Positions 1,737-63,830 of a DNA stretch of 64,000 nucleotides are shown here, in pieces. The notes under the pieces are model-generated. The model saw nothing but the letters and a program-made list of their open reading frames with translations, was not told the DNA's origin and did not search any database. This DNA is from Vulcanimicrobiaceae bacterium (GTDB lineage: Bacteria; Vulcanimicrobiota; Vulcanimicrobiia; Vulcanimicrobiales; Vulcanimicrobiaceae): positions 9,294 through 73,293 of the forward strand of contig DASZHD010000046.1 in the NCBI GenBank assembly GCA_035938175.1, given 5' to 3'. Within the stretch, counting starts at the first letter, position 1. The number at the start of each line of letters is the position of its first letter. Both the position numbers and the translations under genes were made by a program.

Positions 1737-1846
1737 GCCCCTTCGATTCCTCCGGTGGTTCGATGCGCGAGCACGACGAGTTATGCCCTTCGATTCCTCA
1801 GGGTGCTTCGATACCTCAGCATGACAGGCGATTCCTCACCATGACA
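1737..1846 (-). repeat. 49-nt repeat family, 2-3 degenerate units in reverse orientation
   Basis: cccttcgattcctcagggtgcttcgatacctcagcatgac is the reverse complement of the unit seen at 13784, 20021 and 63595. The flanking copies are degenerate. Confidence 0.8.
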
Positions 1847-6722: not shown

Positions 6723-8167
6723 GAGCGGTAAACGACCTCGGTTCGCATCCCGTCCATCATATGTATCTCGTTATGGCAATGCAACAGCCACCGTCCGGGC
6801 GGTGAATCCGCCGTAAAATGCCATGTTGCTGTCCCTCCATGCGCCCGCACCAGGGCCGTGTCCTTGGGGAGCGGCCTAAGCAGCGGTTTGCCGTCCACGC
6901 TCGTTAAACGAAAAACATGCCCGTGCAGATGCATCGGATGGTCCATATCCGTCGTGTTCTTGAAATGAATCGTCACGGCGTCGCCGCGTGTGACGAAAAT
7001 CTTCGGGGTGTGCGGATACGTTTTGCCGTTTATCGTCCACGCGTTGCTGCCGTAGGCGCCGCCCCCAAGTGTAAAGTTGTAGTCATGCTGAGGCGTCTTG
7101 TCATGCTGAGGCATCGAAGCACCCTGAGGCATCGAAGGGCCAACTCCCCCCGCCCCCTCGTACGTAAAGAACTCAACGCCTTCCAGGGTTTGCGGGCTCG
7201 CGGCGGGCGCCGCATTTTCGAAGCCCTCGGTATAAACGACGGCCGCCTGCTGATACGCGGTCGGTTCGCTGGAGAGACCTTGCAATAGCCAAGCACCGGG
7301 TTTTTGTACTTCGAACCACGCGTCGTACCGTTCGGCGACGCCTATACGCAACGCATCGACCGTCACGGGCGCTTCAAGACGGTTCCCGTCCGTGTGCGTT
7401 ACGGTCAGACGATGATCGGCCAGACGCACGTAACGCGTCTGCGTCGGGTTCGCATTGAGAACGCGCAAGCGCACGCGCTGTCCGACTTTCACGGGAAGTT
7501 TTTGCGTTGCCGGATACGACCGGCCGTTGATGCAATGCGCGACGTACGCAACTTCGTCGCCCATTTTATCGTTGGGCTCCATCTCGCGCATTTCCGGAGA
7601 ACCGATAGGATCCACCATCGGCGCGCCGCTTACGCCCATCATCGCCTGCTCGATCGTCGGCAAATTCGGCACGTCGTGAAAGACGAGCGCAAACTCCGCG
7701 TCGTAGTGCTCGTCGTTCGGATCTTCCACGACGATCAATCCGAAGAGCCCGCGCGGCAAGCCGCCGCCCACGTGATCGTGATACCAGCGCGTTCCGGCCG
7801 GCTGCGCGACGAAATCGTACAGAAACGAATCGCCGCTGGGCACCGGCGCCTGCGTAATATCTTCAACGCCGTCCATGCGGTTCGGAAGAATCATTCCGTG
7901 CCAGTGAACCGTAGCCGGTTTGCCGCTGGAGTTCACGAATTTCGCGCGCAACCGCTGCCCTTGCGCGACGCGAATGACCGGCCCCGGAATGCTGCCGTTG
8001 AACGCGAGGAGCGGATACTGCATGCCCGGCGCCGGCGAAAATGCAATCGGTGCTGCGGTTAGCGTGTAGTCCAGCGTGTCTTCGGCCAGCGCCCGCGCCG
8101 GCAGCCGCGGTACTGCGAGCGCGGCCATCACGCCCGCACTTCGCGCCAAGAAGACGCTGCGGCGCAT
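6719..8167 (-). CDS. Tat-exported multicopper oxidase
   Basis: All four copper-ligand motifs are present: HWHGM, WYHDHV, HPMHLHGH and HCHNEIHMMDGM. There is a twin-arginine leader (MRRSVFLARSAGVMAALAVP). I place the start at the internal ATG at 8167, where TAATG overlaps the upstream stop by 1 nt. Confidence 0.9.
   Translation of the reverse strand: MRRSVFLARSAGVMAALAVPRLPARALAEDTLDYTLTAAPIAFSPAPGMQYPLLAFNGSIPGPVIRVAQGQRLRAKFVNSSGKPATVHWHGMILPNRMDGVEDITQAPVPSGDSFLYDFVAQPAGTRWYHDHVGGGLPRGLFGLIVVEDPNDEHYDAEFALVFHDVPNLPTIEQAMMGVSGAPMVDPIGSPEMREMEPNDKMGDEVAYVAHCINGRSYPATQKLPVKVGQRVRLRVLNANPTQTRYVRLADHRLTVTHTDGNRLEAPVTVDALRIGVAERYDAWFEVQKPGAWLLQGLSSEPTAYQQAAVVYTEGFENAAPAASPQTLEGVEFFTYEGAGGVGPSMPQGASMPQHDKTPQHDYNFTLGGGAYGSNAWTINGKTYPHTPKIFVTRGDAVTIHFKNTTDMDHPMHLHGHVFRLTSVDGKPLLRPLPKDTALVRAHGGTATWHFTADSPPGRWLLHCHNEIHMMDGMRTEVVYRS
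7082..7142 (+). repeat. 49-nt repeat family copy inside the multicopper oxidase CDS
   Basis: gtcatgctgaggcgtcttgtcatgctgaggcatcgaagcaccctgaggcatcgaagggcc. It is read through in-frame on the minus strand as GPSMPQGASMPQHDKTPQHD. Confidence 0.8.
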
Positions 8168-12961: not shown

Positions 12962-13765
12962 GTGATCGTCGATTTTCACTCCCACACCTGTGAGAGCGAC
13001 GGCACGCTGACACCCGCGGCGCTGTGCGAGTTCATGCGCGAGCGCGGGGTGCGCGTGTTCTCGATTACCGATCACGACACACTCGGCGCGTACGGCACGT
13101 TCGACGTGCCGGCTTCAATGCGCGTGGTGACCGGCATTGAGATAAACACGACGCACGCCGACAGCGAGGTGCACATCCTCGGCTACCGCTTGCCGACGTC
13201 GCACGCGGCGCTGCAAGAAGTGCTCGCTGGCAACCGCGCGGCGCGCCGTTCGCGCGTCGGAAAAATCGTCGCGCAGCTGCGCGAAGCGGGGCACGACATC
13301 TCGATGGCGCACGTGCAAGCCGAAGCCAACGAACGCGCTTCGCTCGGGCGGCCGCACGTCGGAAAGGCGCTAATCCGCCGCGGCATCGCGCCGGACATCG
13401 AAACGGCGTTCCGGAAATTTTTGCGCCGCGGAACGCCCGGATACGTTCCGTCGACGCACATGCGCCCGCACGACGCCATCGCGATCATCAAAGAGGCCGG
13501 CGGCGTACCCGTGCTCGCGCATCCCGGACGCCTGCGAGATTACGACATCATCGACGAGCTCGCGCAAGCCGGCTTGCGCGGATTAGAAGTCTTTTATCCC
13601 ACGCACGAGCCGATGCAAGTTCAGCATTTTCGCGATCGCGCGCACCGCCTCGGCTTGGTGATGACCGCCGGCTCGGATTTTCACGACATCCGCTATCACA
13701 AACGCGGCGTCGGCGTCGAGATCGACGAGGCGGACATTCGCCCTTTTCTGGATCTTGTGGCGTAG
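12962..13765 (+). CDS. PHP-domain phosphoesterase (TrpH/YciV-like)
   Basis: VDFHSHTCESDG at the N-terminus, ITDHDT, AHPGR and GSDFH motifs typical of PHP metal-dependent phosphatases. Confidence 0.85.
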   Translation: MIVDFHSHTCESDGTLTPAALCEFMRERGVRVFSITDHDTLGAYGTFDVPASMRVVTGIEINTTHADSEVHILGYRLPTSHAALQEVLAGNRAARRSRVGKIVAQLREAGHDISMAHVQAEANERASLGRPHVGKALIRRGIAPDIETAFRKFLRRGTPGYVPSTHMRPHDAIAIIKEAGGVPVLAHPGRLRDYDIIDELAQAGLRGLEVFYPTHEPMQVQHFRDRAHRLGLVMTAGSDFHDIRYHKRGVGVEIDEADIRPFLDLVA

Positions 13766-13768
13766 CTT

Positions 13769-13938
13769 GTCATGCTGCCGCGTGTCATGCTGAGGTATCG
13801 AAGCACTCTGAGGAATCGAAGGGCCCCGCATTGTCATGCTGAGGTATCGAAGCACCCTGAGGAATCGAAGGGCCCCGCATTGTCATGCTGAGGCATCGAA
13901 GCACCCTGAGGCAGCGAAGGGCCCCTCTCCCCTCGCAA
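13769..13938 (+). repeat. 49-nt repeat family, tandem array (one partial and three full units)
   Basis: Units start at 13769 (partial), 13784, 13833 and 13882, giving an exact 49-nt period. The consensus is gtcatgctgaggNatcgaagcaccctgaggaatcgaagggccccgcatt. Confidence 0.9.
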
Positions 13939-14087
13939 CCGCGCCCGACGTTTCGCATCCGTGCGAAACGCTGGCCTACTGAATTGAGCGCTTCACCCCA
14001 CATCCGTGTTTAGGCGCTCAATTCAGATGCTTGCGAGGGGAGAGGGGCCCTTCGCTGCCTCAGGGTGCTTCGATGCCTCAGCATGAC
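13882..14087. repeat. perfect 57-bp inverted repeat enclosing a 92-bp double-hairpin core (MITE-like or structured-RNA element)
   Basis: 13882..13938 is the exact reverse complement of 14031..14087. The core holds a 9-bp stem (13949-57 with 13962-70) and a 13-bp stem (13979-91 with 14014-26). Confidence 0.85.
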
Positions 14088-14155
14088 GAGCGATGCTGCA
14101 GCATGACAAGGGGCGGCGAGCCGAGAAGCAAGCGTCCCACAAGGAGACCCAAAGC

Positions 14156-16816
14156 GTGAAGCGCCTCGCCGCCGGTATACTCGCCGGCTTTTTGTTATCC
14201 AGTTCGGGTGTGATGGCGCAAACGGCGCCCGCACAAGACGGCAACGTCGTCCGCGAAACGCTCGCCAACGGCTTGCGCGTCGTCATCGTGCGCGATCGGC
14301 TTGCGCCGGTTGCCACCACGAATATTTCGTACGGCGTCGGATCCGACGACGACACGATGCCCGGCATCGCGCACGCGACCGAGCATATGATGTTCCGCGG
14401 GACGCACGACGTCACGCCCGGGCAGTTCACGATTATGACGGCGCGGGCGGGTGCGCAGTACAACGCCGGCACCGGCAACTACGCGACGCAGTACTATTTC
14501 AAACTTCCGTCGATGTACGTCGGGCTCGCGCTGCGTTTGGAAGCGGATCGCATGACCGGCGCACGGGAGCTCGCGTCGGACTGGAATACCGAGCGCGGCG
14601 CCATCGAACAAGAGGTTCGAGCTCATGAAAGCGTGCCAACCGCCAAGGTTTTGGGCAAAATGCGCCGGGCGGTTTTCGGCGACACGCCGTACGCGCAGGA
14701 CGGCGTCGGAACCGTCGCAAGCTTTGAAAAGATGCGCGCTTCGGATATCGCGCAGTTCTACCACACCTGGTACCACCCGAATAACGCGACGCTAATCGTC
14801 ACCGGCTACGTCGATCCAACGCAGATCCTTGCGCAAATTCACCGCTATTTCGATCCCATACCGAGTGTGCCGTTGCCGCAGCATCACAGCTACGCGTTCG
14901 GCGCGCTGGATGCCTCGACGCTTCGCGACACGATTGCGGAACTGCCGGTGCCGGTGGTGGCCGAAACGTACCGCATGCCTGCGCTGGGTGCGCCGGACTA
15001 TATGGCGGGACAAATTCTCTCGCTCGTGCTCAACAACGTGCGCGGCGGTTTCGGACAGTTGCAGACGAAAGGTCAGATTCTGGGTGCGGGCGCCGTCGCG
15101 GGTGCGTACTCGGACGTCGGCACGATGATCGTCGTCGGCTTCGGTCTACCGGGGACCCAGCCCGAGGGTACGCAAAGCGCCATCGACGGCGTGTTGGAGA
15201 CGTACCGCACCGGCGGCGTTCCCAGCGATCTGATCGAAACGGCGAAACTGCGGATGCTCAGCCAGCAGCAATACCAACGATCCTCGATCAGCGGGCTTGC
15301 AGACTGGTGGTCGAACGCGCTCTCGCTCGGATACGATTCTCCCGACGACATCCTCAGCAAAGTCGCCGCCGTCACACCGGCCGACGTGGATCGCGTTTTC
15401 CGGCAGTACATCGATCCCAAGCATGCGGTGTCGATGCTGCTGCAGCCGAAGTCGGTGACGTCGCTGCCGCACGTGGATCCCAACGCAAACAAAGAAGACG
15501 TACAATATCCGGTAGACAAAGACGAACCGCTGCCGCCGTGGGCAAAAGCCTATTTTACGGCGCCGCTCACGGTGCCGGCAGAGGACGGCGCCGCTTCGGC
15601 GTTCACGCTTCCCAACGGCCTGCGCCTCACCGTCCAGCGAGAGCCGTTCGCGCCTACCGTTGCGCTCGAGGGAACGATCCGGATGAGTTCGCAGCTGTAC
15701 GAGCCCAAAGGCAAAGACGGCGTGAGCGATATCACCGCGACGCTGTTGCAATGGGGAACCTCGACCTACGATCGAGCGGCGTTCCAAGCGCAGCTGGATG
15801 CAATTGCGTCCTCGGTAAGCTTGGGATCGTCGTTCGGGCTGGAATCGCAAAGCGCGAATCTGGACCGTTCGCTGCAGTTGCTCGCCGACGGGATGCTGCA
15901 TCCGGCGTTCGCGGATGCCTCGTTCGAAGTGGTGAAGGGCAACACCGAACGGACGCTCGCAGCGGTGGAGCATCTGCCTTCGACGCAGGCCGCAATCGCC
16001 CAAACCAACGCGCTGTATCCCATCGGCGATCCGCGCCGCCGGCGCGCAACGGCCGCGACCGTCGCTTCGGTGACGCTGCAGGACGTGAAAAAGTGGTACG
16101 CGTTTGCGTACCGGCCGGATTTGACGACGATCGCCATCGTCGGCGACGTCTCTCCCGCCGAAGCGAAAGCGGCGGTCGAACGGTATTTCGGCCAATGGCA
16201 CGCACACGGGCCACGACCGCCGTTCATCTTCCCGCGCTTGAAGTCGCACGCGAGCCGGTCGGTGACGGTCACTTCGAGCACGAGCACGCAATCGCAAGTC
16301 ACGCTCACGCAGATTATCAACGTCCATCGCGGCGATCCCGATTACATTCCGCTGCAGCTCGCCGACACGATTCTTTCGGGCGAAGGCACCGGGTCGATGC
16401 TGTTCCAGGATCTGCGCGAGAAGAACGGCTACGTGTATGACGTCAGTTCCGAGATGGATATCGGCTTGTCCAGCTCCACGTTCTCGATCGATTTTGCATC
16501 GGATCCGAAAAACGTCGAACGCGCGCAAGCCGCGGCGGTGGCGGACATTCGCCGCTTGCAGACCGCGTTGATTCCGACGGAGCAATTGCAACGCGCGAAG
16601 GCCCTGTTGCTGGCGGAACGCGTCTTACCGCTGGACAGTTACGAGGGCATCGCCGGGGACATTTTGGAAGCGGCGCGGAGCGGCATCAGCAGCGCCGAAG
16701 ACGCCGCCTTCTGGAACGCGCTGCTGCATACGACGCCGGATCAAGTGCGCGCGGCGATGCGCCGGTGGGTGAAGCCCGAAGGATTTACGCGCGTTATGGT
16801 GGCGCCGGGATCATGA
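14156..16816 (+). CDS. tandem-module M16 (pitrilysin/insulinase) family zinc peptidase, secreted
   Basis: HxxEH zinc motif (HATEHMMFRG) and two M16 active/inactive domain pairs. I place the start at GTG 14156, preceded by AAGGAG, which yields a signal peptide (KRLAAGILAGFLLSSSGVMAQ). The longer ORF-track start lies inside repeat DNA. Confidence 0.85.
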   Translation: MKRLAAGILAGFLLSSSGVMAQTAPAQDGNVVRETLANGLRVVIVRDRLAPVATTNISYGVGSDDDTMPGIAHATEHMMFRGTHDVTPGQFTIMTARAGAQYNAGTGNYATQYYFKLPSMYVGLALRLEADRMTGARELASDWNTERGAIEQEVRAHESVPTAKVLGKMRRAVFGDTPYAQDGVGTVASFEKMRASDIAQFYHTWYHPNNATLIVTGYVDPTQILAQIHRYFDPIPSVPLPQHHSYAFGALDASTLRDTIAELPVPVVAETYRMPALGAPDYMAGQILSLVLNNVRGGFGQLQTKGQILGAGAVAGAYSDVGTMIVVGFGLPGTQPEGTQSAIDGVLETYRTGGVPSDLIETAKLRMLSQQQYQRSSISGLADWWSNALSLGYDSPDDILSKVAAVTPADVDRVFRQYIDPKHAVSMLLQPKSVTSLPHVDPNANKEDVQYPVDKDEPLPPWAKAYFTAPLTVPAEDGAASAFTLPNGLRLTVQREPFAPTVALEGTIRMSSQLYEPKGKDGVSDITATLLQWGTSTYDRAAFQAQLDAIASSVSLGSSFGLESQSANLDRSLQLLADGMLHPAFADASFEVVKGNTERTLAAVEHLPSTQAAIAQTNALYPIGDPRRRRATAATVASVTLQDVKKWYAFAYRPDLTTIAIVGDVSPAEAKAAVERYFGQWHAHGPRPPFIFPRLKSHASRSVTVTSSTSTQSQVTLTQIINVHRGDPDYIPLQLADTILSGEGTGSMLFQDLREKNGYVYDVSSEMDIGLSSSTFSIDFASDPKNVERAQAAAVADIRRLQTALIPTEQLQRAKALLLAERVLPLDSYEGIAGDILEAARSGISSAEDAAFWNALLHTTPDQVRAAMRRWVKPEGFTRVMVAPGS

Positions 16817-20020: not shown

Positions 20021-20105
20021 GTCATCCCGAGGTATCAGCGTGTCATCCCGAGGTATCCGCTTGTCATCCTGAGGTATCGAAGGACCCTGAGGTATCGAAG
20101 GGACC
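20021..20105 (+). repeat. 49-nt repeat family, divergent copies
   Basis: gtcatcccgaggtatc is repeated three times and ends in ctgaggtatcgaaggaccctgaggtatcgaagggacc, directly after the metK stop. Confidence 0.8.
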
Positions 20106-40311: not shown

Positions 40312-40971
40312 ATGCGTAACAGTCTTATCCCTGTGGCCCTCTCGGTGGCAGCATATGCCGCATTCGTGCGTCCGCGCATCCTGCGATGGGGCGCTACCGA
40401 TGAAGAAGTGAACGCGCCGTTCCCGGGCGCGGATCTCGTGCCGGCCGGCGTGCGCGGTGCAACCATGGCGACGACGATCGATGCTCCGCCGGCGAAAGTC
40501 TGGCCGTGGCTCGTCCAGATGGGTTACGGACGCGCAGGTTGGTACAGCTGGGATTACCTCGACAACCTTGGACGGCACAGCGCGCAAACGATGCACCCGG
40601 AATGGCAGAACGTCAAAACCGGCGAGTATCTTTCCGGACCGAACGTCAGCGAACCCGAGCGTACGGCGTGGGAAGTTGCGGCCCTGGAACCGCAGCGGTT
40701 CCTCGGCCTTCGATCGCGTATTCGCGGCAGTGAATCATTATGGGCGTTTTGGCTGAAGGAACTTCCCGGCAAGAAAACGCGTCTGATCGTAAGCGGCTAT
40801 TGGCGAACCGATCCCGCATGGCTGCGTCCGGTTCTCAGTTTTGCATTTCTCGAGTGGGCACATTGGATAATGCAGATGAAGCAGTTCGCCGAGATAAAGC
40901 AGCGCGTCGCGAAGTCGACCACAGTCCAGGAAATCTCAAGCGAGACGCTCGCGTTCACCCTCCCTCGATGA
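40312..40971 (+). CDS. SRPBCC-family (polyketide cyclase/START-like) protein
   Basis: IDAPPAKVWPWLVQMGYGRAGWYSWDYLDNLG is typical of an SRPBCC subfamily. Confidence 0.7.
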   Translation: MRNSLIPVALSVAAYAAFVRPRILRWGATDEEVNAPFPGADLVPAGVRGATMATTIDAPPAKVWPWLVQMGYGRAGWYSWDYLDNLGRHSAQTMHPEWQNVKTGEYLSGPNVSEPERTAWEVAALEPQRFLGLRSRIRGSESLWAFWLKELPGKKTRLIVSGYWRTDPAWLRPVLSFAFLEWAHWIMQMKQFAEIKQRVAKSTTVQEISSETLAFTLPR

Positions 40972-41719
40972 GCCTGCGAATCTGTTCTGCATACGCCCGG
41001 CTCGAATTCAGCTTAGTTCCGTTCCGCAAGACGATTACGTACTCGCCGTGAGTCCACGGTTCCAATCTGAAAATCCGGTCGGCATTGATCACGACCGATC
41101 GATGTACGCGGATAAATCCGTGAGGCGACAACCGTTCCTCAAAAGCTGTGAGCGCCTCACGCGTGCGCAGCGTCGCAGTTCCGCTGTGAATGACGGTATA
41201 ATTCCCGTCGGCCTGCAGCCAATCGATTTCGGATGCACCGATGAAACGCACGCCTTCTTGCGTTTTCACCGCAAGGCGTTCGGCCCCGGCGTTTCGGGCG
41301 GCCACCGCCCGAAGTAACCCTTCGATGTCGTACGGCGCGGAGGCGGGATCGGCAAGCCGTTCTCGTGCGCGATTGAGCGCACTGCCGAACCGCTCGGCCG
41401 AGTACGGTTTCAGCAAATAATCGATCGCGTTTACGTCAAACGCGCGAATCGCATACGCATCGTACGCCGTGACGAAAATGATGCCGCGAGGCCGTTCGTC
41501 GGCGCTCAGCGCTTCAAGCACGCCGAAGCCGTCGAGTTCCGGCATTTGAATGTCCAGAAACAGCAAAGCCGGATGCTCGCGCCGTATGTGCTCGACTGCG
41601 CCGCGCCCCTCCGACGCTTCGAAGACGACGTCCACGTCGTCGAACGCTTGCAGCAAATCCCGGACGCGCGCGCGTGCCGGCTCTTCATCGTCAACGATCC
41701 CGGCACGAAGCGTCCGCAT
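40955..41719 (-). CDS. LytR/AlgR-family response regulator (REC + LytTR)
   Basis: REC domain (IVDDEEPAR...LLFLDIQMPELDG...IFVTAYDAYA) and LytTR domain (IDWLQADGNYTVIH...HRSVVIN). Start at the ATG at 41719, one nt after the kinase stop. Confidence 0.9.
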   Translation of the reverse strand: MRTLRAGIVDDEEPARARVRDLLQAFDDVDVVFEASEGRGAVEHIRREHPALLFLDIQMPELDGFGVLEALSADERPRGIIFVTAYDAYAIRAFDVNAIDYLLKPYSAERFGSALNRARERLADPASAPYDIEGLLRAVAARNAGAERLAVKTQEGVRFIGASEIDWLQADGNYTVIHSGTATLRTREALTAFEERLSPHGFIRVHRSVVINADRIFRLEPWTHGEYVIVLRNGTKLNSSRAYAEQIRRLIEGG

Positions 41720-41720
41720 T

Positions 41721-42809
41721 CTATGAAGCGGCGGATGCCGGAGCCGCGAGCCCGATGCGCCGGGGAATTCGCACGGTGACTTCCGTGCCGCCGCCCTCGA
41801 CATCGCGCAGTTGCAGGCTTGCGGCCTCGCCGTAGAGTTGCAAGAGCCGCTTGCGGATATTCGATAATCCGAGTCCCTCGCGGAACTCGGCGCGCGGTGG
41901 AAGGCCGCGCCCATTGTCGGCGACGCGCAGCACCAGCATATCGTCTTGCGCCGCCGCGGTGATGCGCACGTTCGTCGTCTTCGACGATTCGTTCAGTCCA
42001 TGCCGTACCGTGTTTTCAACCAGCGGCTGCAACACGAAACTGGGCACGCGCTCGCCGAGCAGCGCGGCATCGACGTCGACGTTCGCCGCCAGGCGATCGC
42101 CGAATCGCGCCCGCATGATCTCCAAATACGCCTCGAGCATTCGGATCTCCGAATCCAAGCGGGCTTCTTGACTGCCGTCGTTGGCCAGCGTGAGGCGAAG
42201 CATATCGCTCAGCCGTTCCAACATTCGCTGCGCGGCGGAGACGTCGCGCTGCATGAGCGAGCTGATGCTGTTGAGTGTATTGAACAAAAAGTGCGGATGG
42301 ATCTGCGCGCGCAACGCATCGAGCTGCGCGTGCGAGAGTTGCGCCTCCAGCTGTGTCGCCTGAAGCTCGCGCGCACGCGCGATCCGGTAGTATTCCATCG
42401 CATAAAGAAGTACGACGAATGAAAGCTGGCCGATAAAAACCCCGAACACCTCGTCGATCACGGTTTTCGCGAACGTCCAGTGGGTGCCGAAGATCGCGTT
42501 TTCCAGCGGAATCCAGATCGCGTATTTCGGAACGACTGAAAACACCAAAATGACCGCATACAGTAAGACTTTTGCGGGCAAGTGCGGACGCACCAGCGGC
42601 ACCCGTCGTACGAGCCAAATGTACATGGGCGTGAGCAATCCGCACGACCACCAATTCAATAGCCCGGTTCCAAGGGCGTAACCCATCGTGACGGGATGGC
42701 CGGCGGCGCCGGCAGAGGCGTAGGACTGTACACCGTCCAGCAGCCCGATGACCGTGAAAAGGGTGCCGTAAAGCGCAAAATCGCTCCGCAAGCGCGCCGC
42801 GCGGTTCAT
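41721..42809 (-). CDS. LytS/YehU-type sensor histidine kinase
   Basis: Membrane N-terminus, His_kinase motif QIHPHFLFNTLNSISSL, and HATPase (VENTVRHG...DNGRGL). I prefer the start MNRAARL at 42809. Confidence 0.85.
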   Translation of the reverse strand: MNRAARLRSDFALYGTLFTVIGLLDGVQSYASAGAAGHPVTMGYALGTGLLNWWSCGLLTPMYIWLVRRVPLVRPHLPAKVLLYAVILVFSVVPKYAIWIPLENAIFGTHWTFAKTVIDEVFGVFIGQLSFVVLLYAMEYYRIARARELQATQLEAQLSHAQLDALRAQIHPHFLFNTLNSISSLMQRDVSAAQRMLERLSDMLRLTLANDGSQEARLDSEIRMLEAYLEIMRARFGDRLAANVDVDAALLGERVPSFVLQPLVENTVRHGLNESSKTTNVRITAAAQDDMLVLRVADNGRGLPPRAEFREGLGLSNIRKRLLQLYGEAASLQLRDVEGGGTEVTVRIPRRIGLAAPASAAS

Positions 42810-52502: not shown

Positions 52503-53936
52503 TTGTCAAAGCGTCTAACCGTTATCGGCGCGGGCCTTGCCGGAAGCGAGGCCGCTTGGCAAGCGGCGCTATGCGGCGTTGCCGTCGATCTCTACGAAAT
52601 GCGCCCGCAGAAAAGCGGTCCCGCCCATCACACGGGAAATTTTGCCGAGCTGGTCTGCAGTAATTCATTTCGCGGCGCCGCGCTCGAGAATGCCGTCGGT
52701 TTGTTGAAAGCGGAACTGGAACTTCTCGATTCGCTCGTGATGGCGTCGGCGCGCGATGCCGCGGTGCCGGCCGGCGGCGCCTTGGCGGTGGATCGCGACC
52801 GCTTTTCGCAAGCCGTACAAGCACGAATCGAATCGCAGCCGCTGATCGCGGTGCATCGCGAAGAAGTGCTGACGATTCCGCTCGACCGTCCCGCGATCGT
52901 TGCGTGCGGGCCGCTGCCGAGTACGGAGTTTTTGGGGGAGATTGATGGGGTGTTGGGGAGGGTGGACCCTTCGATGCCTCAGGGTGGTTCGATTCCTCAC
53001 CATGACAAATCGAGGCTGCACTACTACGATGCCGCCTCGCCGATCGTCGCCGCCGATTCGATCGACGAACGTCCCATGTATCGCAAATCGCGATACGAAA
53101 AAGGCGACGGCGACGACTACCTCAATATTCCCCTAACGAAAGAGCAGTATCTTCAACTGCTCGCGGATTTGCGCACGCTGCCGCGGCACGAAACCAAAGC
53201 GTTCGAAGATGCAAAATATTTTGAAGGCTGTCTTCCGATCGAAGAGATGGCCGATCGCGGCGACGACGTGCTGCGCTTCGGACCCATGAAGCCCGTCGGA
53301 CTGCGCGATCCGCGCACCGGAAAAACGCCGTACGCGGTCGTGCAGTTGCGCAAAGAAAACGTCGCGGGCACGGCGTTCAATTTGGTCGGTTTTCAAACTC
53401 GTCTCACCTGGCCGTCGCAAAAGGAAGCGTTCCAAAAACTTCCCGGGTTGGAACGCGCGGAATGGCTGCGCTTGGGCGTTATGCACCGCAACACGTTCAT
53501 CGACTCGCCGCACCTGTTGGGGCCGGACCTGCGTTTGCGCGGAACGCCGTCGCTGTATTTTGCCGGACAGATCACCGGAGCCGAAGGGTACGTCGAGGCC
53601 GCCGCTTGCGGCGCCATGACCGGCATCCACGCCGCGCGCCAAATCCTGGAACTGCCCGCGGTGGAGTTTCCGGATACGAGCGCGTTCGGCGCGATCGTCG
53701 CGCACCTGCAGAACACCCAGACGCCGGACTTTCAGCCCGCAAATGTCACATGGGCGCCGTTTCCGCCGCTTGATCCGCAGACCGTTGCGAGCCTCGGAAA
53801 GCGCCCAGACAAAAAGGTGCGGCGGCGGATGCTTGCGGAACGCTCGCTGGCCGCAATGAACTTATTTGCCCGCGCGTTGAGGAGACATGATGATCGCAAC
53901 CCCTCCCACCACCTACTCGCCGCCCCGGCTCGTTAG
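52503..53936 (+). CDS. trmFO: methylenetetrahydrofolate--tRNA-(uracil-5)-methyltransferase
   Basis: LTVIGAGLAGSEAAWQ (FAD site), ELVCSNSFR, MHRNTFI, YFAGQITGAEGYVE. It contains an in-frame repeat-derived insertion (see findings). Confidence 0.9.
   Translation: MSKRLTVIGAGLAGSEAAWQAALCGVAVDLYEMRPQKSGPAHHTGNFAELVCSNSFRGAALENAVGLLKAELELLDSLVMASARDAAVPAGGALAVDRDRFSQAVQARIESQPLIAVHREEVLTIPLDRPAIVACGPLPSTEFLGEIDGVLGRVDPSMPQGGSIPHHDKSRLHYYDAASPIVAADSIDERPMYRKSRYEKGDGDDYLNIPLTKEQYLQLLADLRTLPRHETKAFEDAKYFEGCLPIEEMADRGDDVLRFGPMKPVGLRDPRTGKTPYAVVQLRKENVAGTAFNLVGFQTRLTWPSQKEAFQKLPGLERAEWLRLGVMHRNTFIDSPHLLGPDLRLRGTPSLYFAGQITGAEGYVEAAACGAMTGIHAARQILELPAVEFPDTSAFGAIVAHLQNTQTPDFQPANVTWAPFPPLDPQTVASLGKRPDKKVRRRMLAERSLAAMNLFARALRRHDDRNPSHHLLAAPAR
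52967..53006 (-). repeat. 49-nt repeat family copy inside trmFO
   Basis: cccttcgatgcctcagggtggttcgattcctcaccatgac (reverse orientation), read through in-frame as PSMPQGGSIPHHD. Confidence 0.8.
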
Positions 53937-63594: not shown

Positions 63595-63830
63595 TGTCAT
63601 GCTGAGGAATCGAAGCACCCTGAGGAATCGAAGGGCCACGCATTGTCATGCTGAGGAATCGAAGCACCCTGAGGAATCGAAGGGTAACGTATTGTCATGC
63701 TGAGGCATCGAAGCACCCTGAGGAATCGAAGAGTCACGCCGTTGTCATGCTGAGGCATCGAAGCACCCTGAGGAATCGAAGGGTCACGCGTCGTCATGGT
63801 GAGGTATCGAACCACGCCGAGGCATCGAGG
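63595..63830 (+). repeat. 49-nt repeat family, tandem array of five units
   Basis: Units start at 63595, 63644, 63693, 63744 and 63793 (period 49-51 nt). The last unit is degenerate. The array begins 4 nt after the hslU stop. Confidence 0.9.

Follow-up and report, generated by a model that had tools for sequence, protein, structure and literature searches.

The 206-bp palindrome lying between a PHP-domain gene and an M16 peptidase gene in the window (the whole stretch of 64,000 nt analyzed here, from the genome of a Vulcanimicrobiaceae bacterium) is one copy of a dispersed hairpin element of about 200 bp, of which this genome carries approximately 25-30. The element constitutes an unannotated new lineage of TwoAYGGAY-like structured repeat with mobile-like behavior. 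The best explanation of all observations is considered to be a multi-copy, TwoAYGGAY-like structured element of the Eremiobacterota, the working form of which would be a minus-strand RNA, and a probability of about 0.5 is assigned to this reading as a whole. The identity of the element family and its mobile-like behavior are very likely, and a function of the minus strand in single-stranded form is somewhat favored. Each member consists of a conserved core of ~90 nt, comprising a three-way junction with two hairpins, closed by a long stalk, and the minus-strand RNA would display two A(N)GGA hairpin loops, which are sites of the kind bound by CsrA. The family multiplies within genomes and turns over between genomes in the manner of a small non-autonomous mobile element, and its insertion sites lie shortly after stop codons. 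The outer stalk is built, in this species, from the genome's own REP-like double mini-hairpin unit. The features of the locus are listed in Table 1.

In a repeat search of the 64-kb window, the two arms (13882-13938 and 14031-14087; 57 nt each, spaced by 92 nt) were complementary at 57 of 57 positions, in agreement with the initial annotation, which had been made from the sequence alone. The chance expectation for a perfect inverted repeat of this length within a few hundred bases in a window of 64 kb is ~1e-27 (own arithmetic). Both hairpins previously described in the 92-nt core were also recovered, the perfect 13-bp stem by the repeat search and the 9-bp stem by sequence and folding. In single-sequence folds, both strands of the palindrome formed a stalk with two hairpins (plus strand, -177.5 kcal/mol, z = -24.9; minus strand, -179 kcal/mol, z = -20.4), and for neither strand was any shuffled sequence as good. 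The arms are built from repeat units, as had been noted, the outer left arm being the third copy of a 49-nt tandem unit. The gap between the two genes amounts to 390 nt and is mostly occupied by the element, which ends 68 nt before the GTG start of the peptidase gene (about 70 nt in the initial annotation) and 53 nt before its AAGGAG sequence. Alignment with the sister genome G002 identified this GTG as the true start. The longest M16 open reading frame begins at an ATG at 14093, within repeat fragments, and gene callers may be misled into adding 21 repeat-encoded codons to the protein. Other copies of the repeat unit in the window are located at 1803-1825 (minus strand), 7100-7122, 20063-20085, 52984-53006 (minus strand), and 63596-63815; these include an array of five repeat units at the window end.

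Table 1. Features of the palindrome and its surroundings in the window, and sites of subfamily 2 elsewhere in the same genome (given as contig:position).
Feature	Position	Strand	Description
PHP-domain gene	12962-13765	+	TAG stop codon
Truncated repeat-unit head (CTTGTCATGCTG...)	13766-13782	+	Immediately 3' of the TAG stop codon of the PHP-domain gene
Two tandem 49-nt units	13783-13880	+	Copies at 13783-13831 and 13832-13880; each a double mini-hairpin (4-bp covarying stem and loop GAGGNATCGA, twice)
Outer left arm (third unit)	13882-13921	+	Third tandem copy at 13881-13929, 17-nt inner stalk next; mini-hairpin 1 at 13886-13903, mini-hairpin 2 at 13904-13921
Mini-hairpin 2 of the outer left arm	13904-13921	+	Private loop variant GAGGCAGCGA
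Inner stalk, 5' half on the plus strand (CCCCTCTCCCCTCGCAA)	13922-13938	+	Always adjacent to the core in this genome
Conserved core (three-way-junction strands and two hairpins)	13939-14030	-	Minus strand is the likely working strand; TwoAYGGAY-like layout
Hairpin P2 (9-bp stem CGTTTCGCA/TGCGAAACG)	13949-13970	-	Stem 13949-13957/13962-13970; minus-strand tip GCACGGAUGC (ACGGAU = AYGGAY)
Hairpin P3 (13-bp stem)	13979-14026	-	Stem 13979-13991/14014-14026; apical mini-hairpin 13999-14008, minus-strand CACGGAUGUG (ACGGAU = AYGGAY)
Inner stalk, 3' half on the plus strand	14031-14047	+	Exact complement of 13922-13938
Outer right arm	14048-14087	-	Inverted copy of the unit at 13882-13921, same private loop variant
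Further inverted unit, fragments	14088-14110	-	20-nt direct repeat 14071-14090/14091-14110
Ribosome-binding site and start codon of the M16 peptidase gene	14141-14158	+	AAGGAG at 14141-14146, GTG at 14156
Subfamily 2, larger P3 (outside the window)	C60:23947-24058, C60:10547-10658		
Subfamily 2, larger P3 (outside the window), further sites	C52:70887, C52:107472, C56:61751, C56:83845, C53:85373, C4:19128		

A core unique to this locus had been named as an observation that would speak against the element. Instead, the 92-nt core gave 31 matches in its own genome (3.73 Mb, 62 contigs, 61% G+C), including about 20 complete copies with identities of 88-100%; the remaining matches were broken by contig ends. 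The relatives of the YmdB gene place this MAG in the Eremiobacterota (WPS-2). Inverted arms were present in every complete copy, usually with a length of 57-63 nt and bounded by GTCAT...ATGAC. All 17 copies scorable with a crude GC3-based gene call were intergenic (neighbors convergent for 10 and co-directional for 7, with no copy in a divergent gap), and copies sit 3-50 nt past stop codons in both orientations. Relative to co-directional neighbors, orientation was unbiased, with ratios of 5:2 in this genome and 11:10 in other genomes. Alignment of 20 copies with three from G002 yielded the stalk P1 and the hairpins P2 and P3, with two-sided changes in 23 of 40 pairs. Within the genome, stalk and P3 loop had diverged equally fast (mean pairwise divergence 0.21 and 0.22), compared with 0.03 in the P2/P3 stems and 0.04-0.065 in the junctions. 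The core, which had been called unrelated to the repeat unit, proves to be the most ancient and best conserved part of the element and resembles a known RNA motif, TwoAYGGAY. A second subfamily with a larger P3 (Table 1) contained two young copies, 97% identical, with arms of the REP-like unit; these two differ by a 4-nt stalk block that is mirrored in both arms. The older copies of subfamily 2 have perfect arms of 22-56 bp with unique sequence.

With a first covariance model, built from this alignment of 20 plus three copies, the element was matched at full length in 22 of the 151 genomes from the host's family. With a second model (R2), built from the matches of the first, the same three-way junction was recovered from 153 of the 301 genomes that had been sampled from the phylum and from 44 of 100 genera, at most 10 candidates being scored per genome; many phylum genomes carry at least 10 copies of the element. 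Among 30 elements from other genomes, 93.2% of cells were paired and two-sided changes occurred at 39 of 40 pairs, and the covariation score was 0.746 (0.155 when shuffled, ~0.12 with slid partners), in an alignment that was fitted to the covariance model and thereby favors the structure. The covariance analysis that the initial annotation had proposed indicated a conserved structured single-stranded nucleic acid, as did strand-specific wobble pairs. Elements of other genomes have near-perfect arms of 18-48 bp around a center of 84-105 nt. Arm sequences are unrelated between genomes, and in subfamily 2 also between copies of one genome; they are related within subfamily 1 of the window's genome and within another carrier, G006. 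The core is conserved, and the stalk is free in sequence while its pairing is retained. In some members, one of the loops is without GGA (ATCGTG variants). Further, one G006 copy (L022:1470-1700) has ~100 extra nt between P2 and the remaining core, so the center tolerates insertions.

On the minus strand, the window copy shows ACGGAU at both hairpin tips (GCACGGAUGC and CACGGAUGUG). Of 50 elements, 40 had minus-strand AYGGAY at one or both tips, 17 of them at both, compared with a single element having AYGGAY on the plus strand. Elements without the motif carry the near variants AAGGAU, CAGGAU, or AUGGAG, and rarely none. The TwoAYGGAY model of Rfam (RF01731) gave full-length (positions 1-168) sub-threshold matches at 12 places in the window's genome, the best scoring 41.3 bits against a gathering score of 43 and the others 18-34 bits. 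Eleven of the 12 overlapped mapped elements, including seven subfamily-1 copies, and the strand of these matches was always opposite to the core orientation used, that is, the AYGGAY strand. A G006 copy scored 31.8 bits. When the loops were aligned to the model, ACACGGAUGU corresponded to aCAuGGAUGu and CCACGGACGG to CCaUGGAuGG. The window copy itself had no RF01731 match at E <= 10, the element had no match in Rfam at gathering score, and none of 20 loci from relatives reached the gathering score of RF01731; because it lies below the Rfam threshold in the Eremiobacterota, the element goes unannotated. Part of these covariance-model scores comes from any long stem, and membership in TwoAYGGAY is therefore treated as unproven; plant miRNA-precursor models matched the same element copies likewise. 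MIR537, mir-642, Acido-1, and similar Rfam families were dismissed as generic long-hairpin matches below threshold.

The element shares with TwoAYGGAY (RF01731; Weinberg et al. 2010, PMC2864571) a basal stem with two sequential hairpins, AYGGAY (here ACGGAU) in both terminal loops of one strand, a long and poorly conserved outer stem, tens of copies per genome, an association with REP-type repeats, and divergent doublets. It differs in its occurrence in Eremiobacterota rather than in Gammaproteobacteria and Clostridia, in a longer P3 with an internal loop, in a stalk of up to 57 bp that is made of another repeat family, and in REP-like units that flank both sides in mirror without a fixed downstream position. 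This likeness is compatible with homology and with convergence. TwoAYGGAY is a long-known orphan RNA motif, and only recently was it shown in Pseudomonas to be multi-copy, tied to REP arrays, arranged in divergent doublets, and mobile-like (preprint 10.64898/2026.09.22.753630). Four close doublets were found here, and all four were divergent on the AYGGAY strand.

Mismatches in the stalk were distributed asymmetrically between the strands. Read on the AYGGAY strand, the ratio of G·U to A·C was 28:9 in 27 elements of other genomes, 13:7 in the copies of the window's genome, and 16:6 in 19 subfamily-2 elements that were oriented only by their GGA loops. The summed ratio was 57:22 (binomial p ~1e-4, own arithmetic; some elements are orthologues and not fully independent). 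This bias opposes the strand preference of the covariance model, so it was not created by the strand assignment. Over all helices of alignment A3, the ratio was 34:19 (p = 0.053), with P3 reversed; G·U pairs are rare overall, Watson-Crick pairs making up 91.5% of cells. The G·U asymmetry speaks for selection acting on a single strand in its single-stranded state. The simplest reading is RNA, and single-stranded DNA is also compatible. At the locus in the window, transcripts of the AYGGAY strand would be antisense to the PHP and the M16 gene alike. Sequence scans showed no sigma-70-like promoter and no terminator within the element. Since the orientation relative to neighboring genes is unbiased, read-through would produce the proposed working strand in approximately half of the copies. 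TwoAYGGAY has been proposed as a CsrA binder (PMC4333381). The window's genome has a csrA gene, as do 127 of the 151 genomes from the host's family; with the gene near-universal there, its presence is compatible with CsrA binding and does not discriminate. Binding of CsrA by the element is regarded as tentative and rather unlikely.

In the relatives that keep this gene order, 6-123 nt separate the PHP gene from the M16 gene. In G002, the same M16 GTG start lies 37 nt past the PHP stop codon, compared with 390 nt between the genes in the window. Because relatives keep the two genes this close, the repeat block of ~345 nt (13766-14110) is recognized as an insertion placed right after the stop codon, which pushed apart two genes adjacent in relatives. 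An influence on peptidase expression, which had been suggested from the position of the palindrome, is plausible in view of this insertion between genes that are adjacent in relatives. Among the element sites of G002, one is empty in the window's genome and another is occupied there by a different subfamily, again with unit arms.

The arms of the window copy carry a trace of recent copying. A variant CAGCG of the loop of the second mini-hairpin (CCTGAGGCAGCGAAGGG) was found in 2 of 231 units genome-wide, one in each arm of this copy. Since the loop bases of the mini-hairpin need not pair, one mutation copied across the arms is more economical than two, and one arm was copied from the other. 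The private variant in both arms, together with the near-neutral rate of a stalk that nevertheless stays paired, favors arm-to-arm copying by template switching, a process known both to generate hairpins and to preserve them (PMC8794818, PMC7202029). The arms were copied from one another recently at the DNA level, by template switching or by conversion within the palindrome, which explains the 57/57 match.

Such copying would also suit a purely selfish DNA palindrome, to which we give an appreciable but minor probability. It would form the three-way junction in the single-stranded DNA of one strand and be recognized and copied to new sites by a host or mobile-element enzyme, without any RNA function; the conserved core would serve transposition competence, and template switching would keep the stalk paired. 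A multi-copy family with turnover between sister genomes, an orientation unbiased with respect to transcription, a paired stalk with a near-neutral rate, and almost purely Watson-Crick pairing are all in accordance with this alternative, and the 57:22 asymmetry fits too, since single-stranded DNA tolerates G·T wobble. However, no candidate enzyme was found. The Y1/RAYT transposase (PF01797) gave no matches in the window's genome (95.5% complete), while control genomes did match, and was absent from G006, which has more than 16 element copies; in the host's family, it occurred in 7 of 151 genomes, unlinked to element carriage. No transposase was found between the flanking repeat clusters. A REPtron-like cognate gene was likewise rejected, the genes between the repeat clusters being ordinary (a ValRS fragment and membrane proteins; in another genome, a PemK-like toxin), and a non-exhaustive search turned up no insertion sequence sharing the element ends. 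Replication-strand bias was also absent (19:14 in G001 and G006, with replichores assigned by dnaA, which only approximates the origin). Target-site duplications, which the initial annotation had expected to be checked, were not seen: direct repeats immediately outside GTCAT...ATGAC were absent in all full copies of the window's genome. Defined ends were not found, and in sister genomes the unoccupied sites have diverged too far to reveal the element boundaries. Moreover, the loop motif and layout match a motif that has been described as RNA.

Besides the minus-strand RNA that we prefer, a host cis-acting hairpin at gene 3' ends was considered. Regardless of how it arose, it would act through a very stable stem in either orientation, as an mRNA 3'-end stabilizer, an RNase III site, or an insulator; at this locus, its effect would be to uncouple the peptidase gene from the PHP gene. 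The location of copies just past stop codons in both orientations, the enrichment of convergent pairs with absence of divergent ones, and the fold of -177 kcal/mol agree with such a role, and REPs and bacterial MITEs are reported to stabilize or destabilize mRNAs (PMC3733652). This explanation, however, leaves the strand asymmetry and the conservation of junction and loop sequences in 44 genera unexplained, and the relatives manage without a spacer at the PHP/M16 locus. An intrinsic terminator was rejected, since no T-run follows 14087 and none was found in the element scan. A role confined to that of a 3'-end hairpin is considered very unlikely.

An assembly artefact, in which the palindrome would result from mis-joined repeat copies, is practically negligible: at least 12 contig ends fall inside element copies in the 62-contig assembly, indicating that the assembler struggles with them, but the same architecture recurs in about 20 copies internal to contigs and in numerous other assemblies, single-contig genomes among them. 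The element family is a main cause of fragmentation in this assembly, and elements of this type disrupt short-read assemblies. Contig ends within the element were found for C4, C7, C13, C25, C27 (both ends), C31, C33, C39, C42, C45, C58, C59, and C61. The end of C25 and the start of C58 have identical core and stalk for the whole extent of C25, and may represent one locus.

The outer 40 nt of each arm form a double mini-hairpin, each half of which consists of a 4-bp stem and the loop GAGGNATCGA. Approximately 660-710 such mini-hairpins are present genome-wide, with ~95% of stem positions paired and with stem positions 2 and 3 alternating between C-G and G-C. The double unit occurs 259 times in the window's genome and was absent from 60 relatives. 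In addition to 49-nt tandem arrays, it forms 48 short inverted doublets with a conserved spacer of 17-19 nt (consensus CAGCCGATCGCAAACG) in either orientation. Examples of these short REPIN-like doublets, in a genome lacking RAYT, are located at C51:11179-11318 and C52:96159-96299. In the long elements, the outer mini-hairpin stem differed between the left and right arms in 11 of 28 comparisons, and both versions were self-complementary in 7 of the 11, which marks the local mini-hairpin as an independent unit. As arm stems often differ, the window copy is unusual in its perfect 57/57 match.

Extra units outside the arms were mirror-symmetric, 18 of 19 on the left being forward and 15 of 16 on the right being reverse, and this mirrored distribution (18 left and 15 right) excluded a placement solely downstream as in the REP arrays of Pseudomonas. 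An origin of the 48 short doublets by deletion from the long element was rejected, because their 17-nt spacers resembled its inner part no more than shuffled spacers did (mean score 12.6, compared with 11.3). Insertion of the core into pre-existing hairpins, which would make the arms local DNA, was also rejected, because every inner stalk in this genome is accompanied by the core and the arms are homologous within it and within G006; for the old subfamily-2 copies with unique arms, such an insertion could have taken place. Within the loop GAGGNATCGA (13886-13903 and all other units), tandem G·A/A·G pairs together with one G-C pair might lengthen the stem and leave GNAU as a tetraloop. Tandem G·A pairs have been reported within a TwoAYGGAY stem (PMC4333381).

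The outer arms correspond to an inverted doublet of REP units that folds as a hairpin, the arrangement by which REPINs are recognized. As in REPINs and REPs (Bertels and Rainey 2011, PMC3116915; Di Nocera et al. 2013, PMC3733652), inverted short hairpin repeats flank a spacer and fold into a long hairpin, stems show compensatory changes, arrangements are tandem and clustered, and extragenic copies follow genes and are enriched between convergent genes; the 48 short doublets with a 17-nt spacer are a further likeness. Unlike REPIN-RAYT systems, the window's genome has no RAYT/Y1 transposase. Moreover, the units start with (T)GTCAT rather than with GTAG or CGTC, the center rather than the ends is conserved across the wider element family, and the "spacer" is a 126-nt structured module (92-nt core and 17 nt of inner stalk on each side). 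Assignment to REP/RAYT or IS200/IS605 elements was rejected, given the absence of Y1 transposase here and in many-copy carriers and the lack of replication-strand bias.

The initial annotation had compared the palindrome to a MITE with terminal inverted repeats. The element is indeed dispersed in multiple copies and non-coding, but neither target-site duplications nor an autonomous partner were found, and its conserved part is the center while the arms vary, which is the reverse of a MITE defined by its terminal repeats. A classical MITE was thus rejected; the label fits only loosely, and the structured RNA given as an alternative in the same annotation fits better. RNA-folding MITEs such as Correia/NEMIS, ERIC, RUP, and Bcr1 (listed in PMC3733652) are similar in being palindromic, non-coding, dispersed, gene-adjacent sequences of 100-300 bp that can form stable RNA hairpins affecting neighboring genes. 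The present element differs from them in the absence of target-site duplications, in arms that are unconserved family-wide, and in that no related insertion sequence with the same ends turned up. Integron attC sites were rejected as well, since the copies are single, dispersed among core genes in both orientations, and end in GTCAT/ATGAC, not in RYYYAAC/GTTRRRY.

With these results, the TwoAYGGAY architecture is found in about half of the sampled genomes of the Eremiobacterota, an uncultured soil phylum, and the REP-like stalk in this genome suggests that the link between the RNA motif and REP repeats is general. A bolder and improbable extension would be that the element is a mobile CsrA sponge, a self-propagating regulatory RNA gene in which the three-way junction serves both as a CsrA-titrating RNA and as a DNA self-copying signal. 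If so, the stalk would have no fixed sequence, would be rewritten by template switching and would absorb other repeats, here the REP-like unit, and the Csr regulon would be tuned through copy number. REP-type repeats would then be one half, and TwoAYGGAY-type RNAs the other half, of one widespread system in several phyla. The strand prediction from G·U pairs, the two defined GGA loops, and the naturally filled and empty sites offer experimental handles. In one genome of the phylum (L159:908-1267, on G159:C6), an open reading frame of 119 aa is located between divergently oriented elements at 40947-41077 and 41733-41860; judged by eye, its product resembles a PemK/MazF-type toxin, and its presence there is probably incidental.
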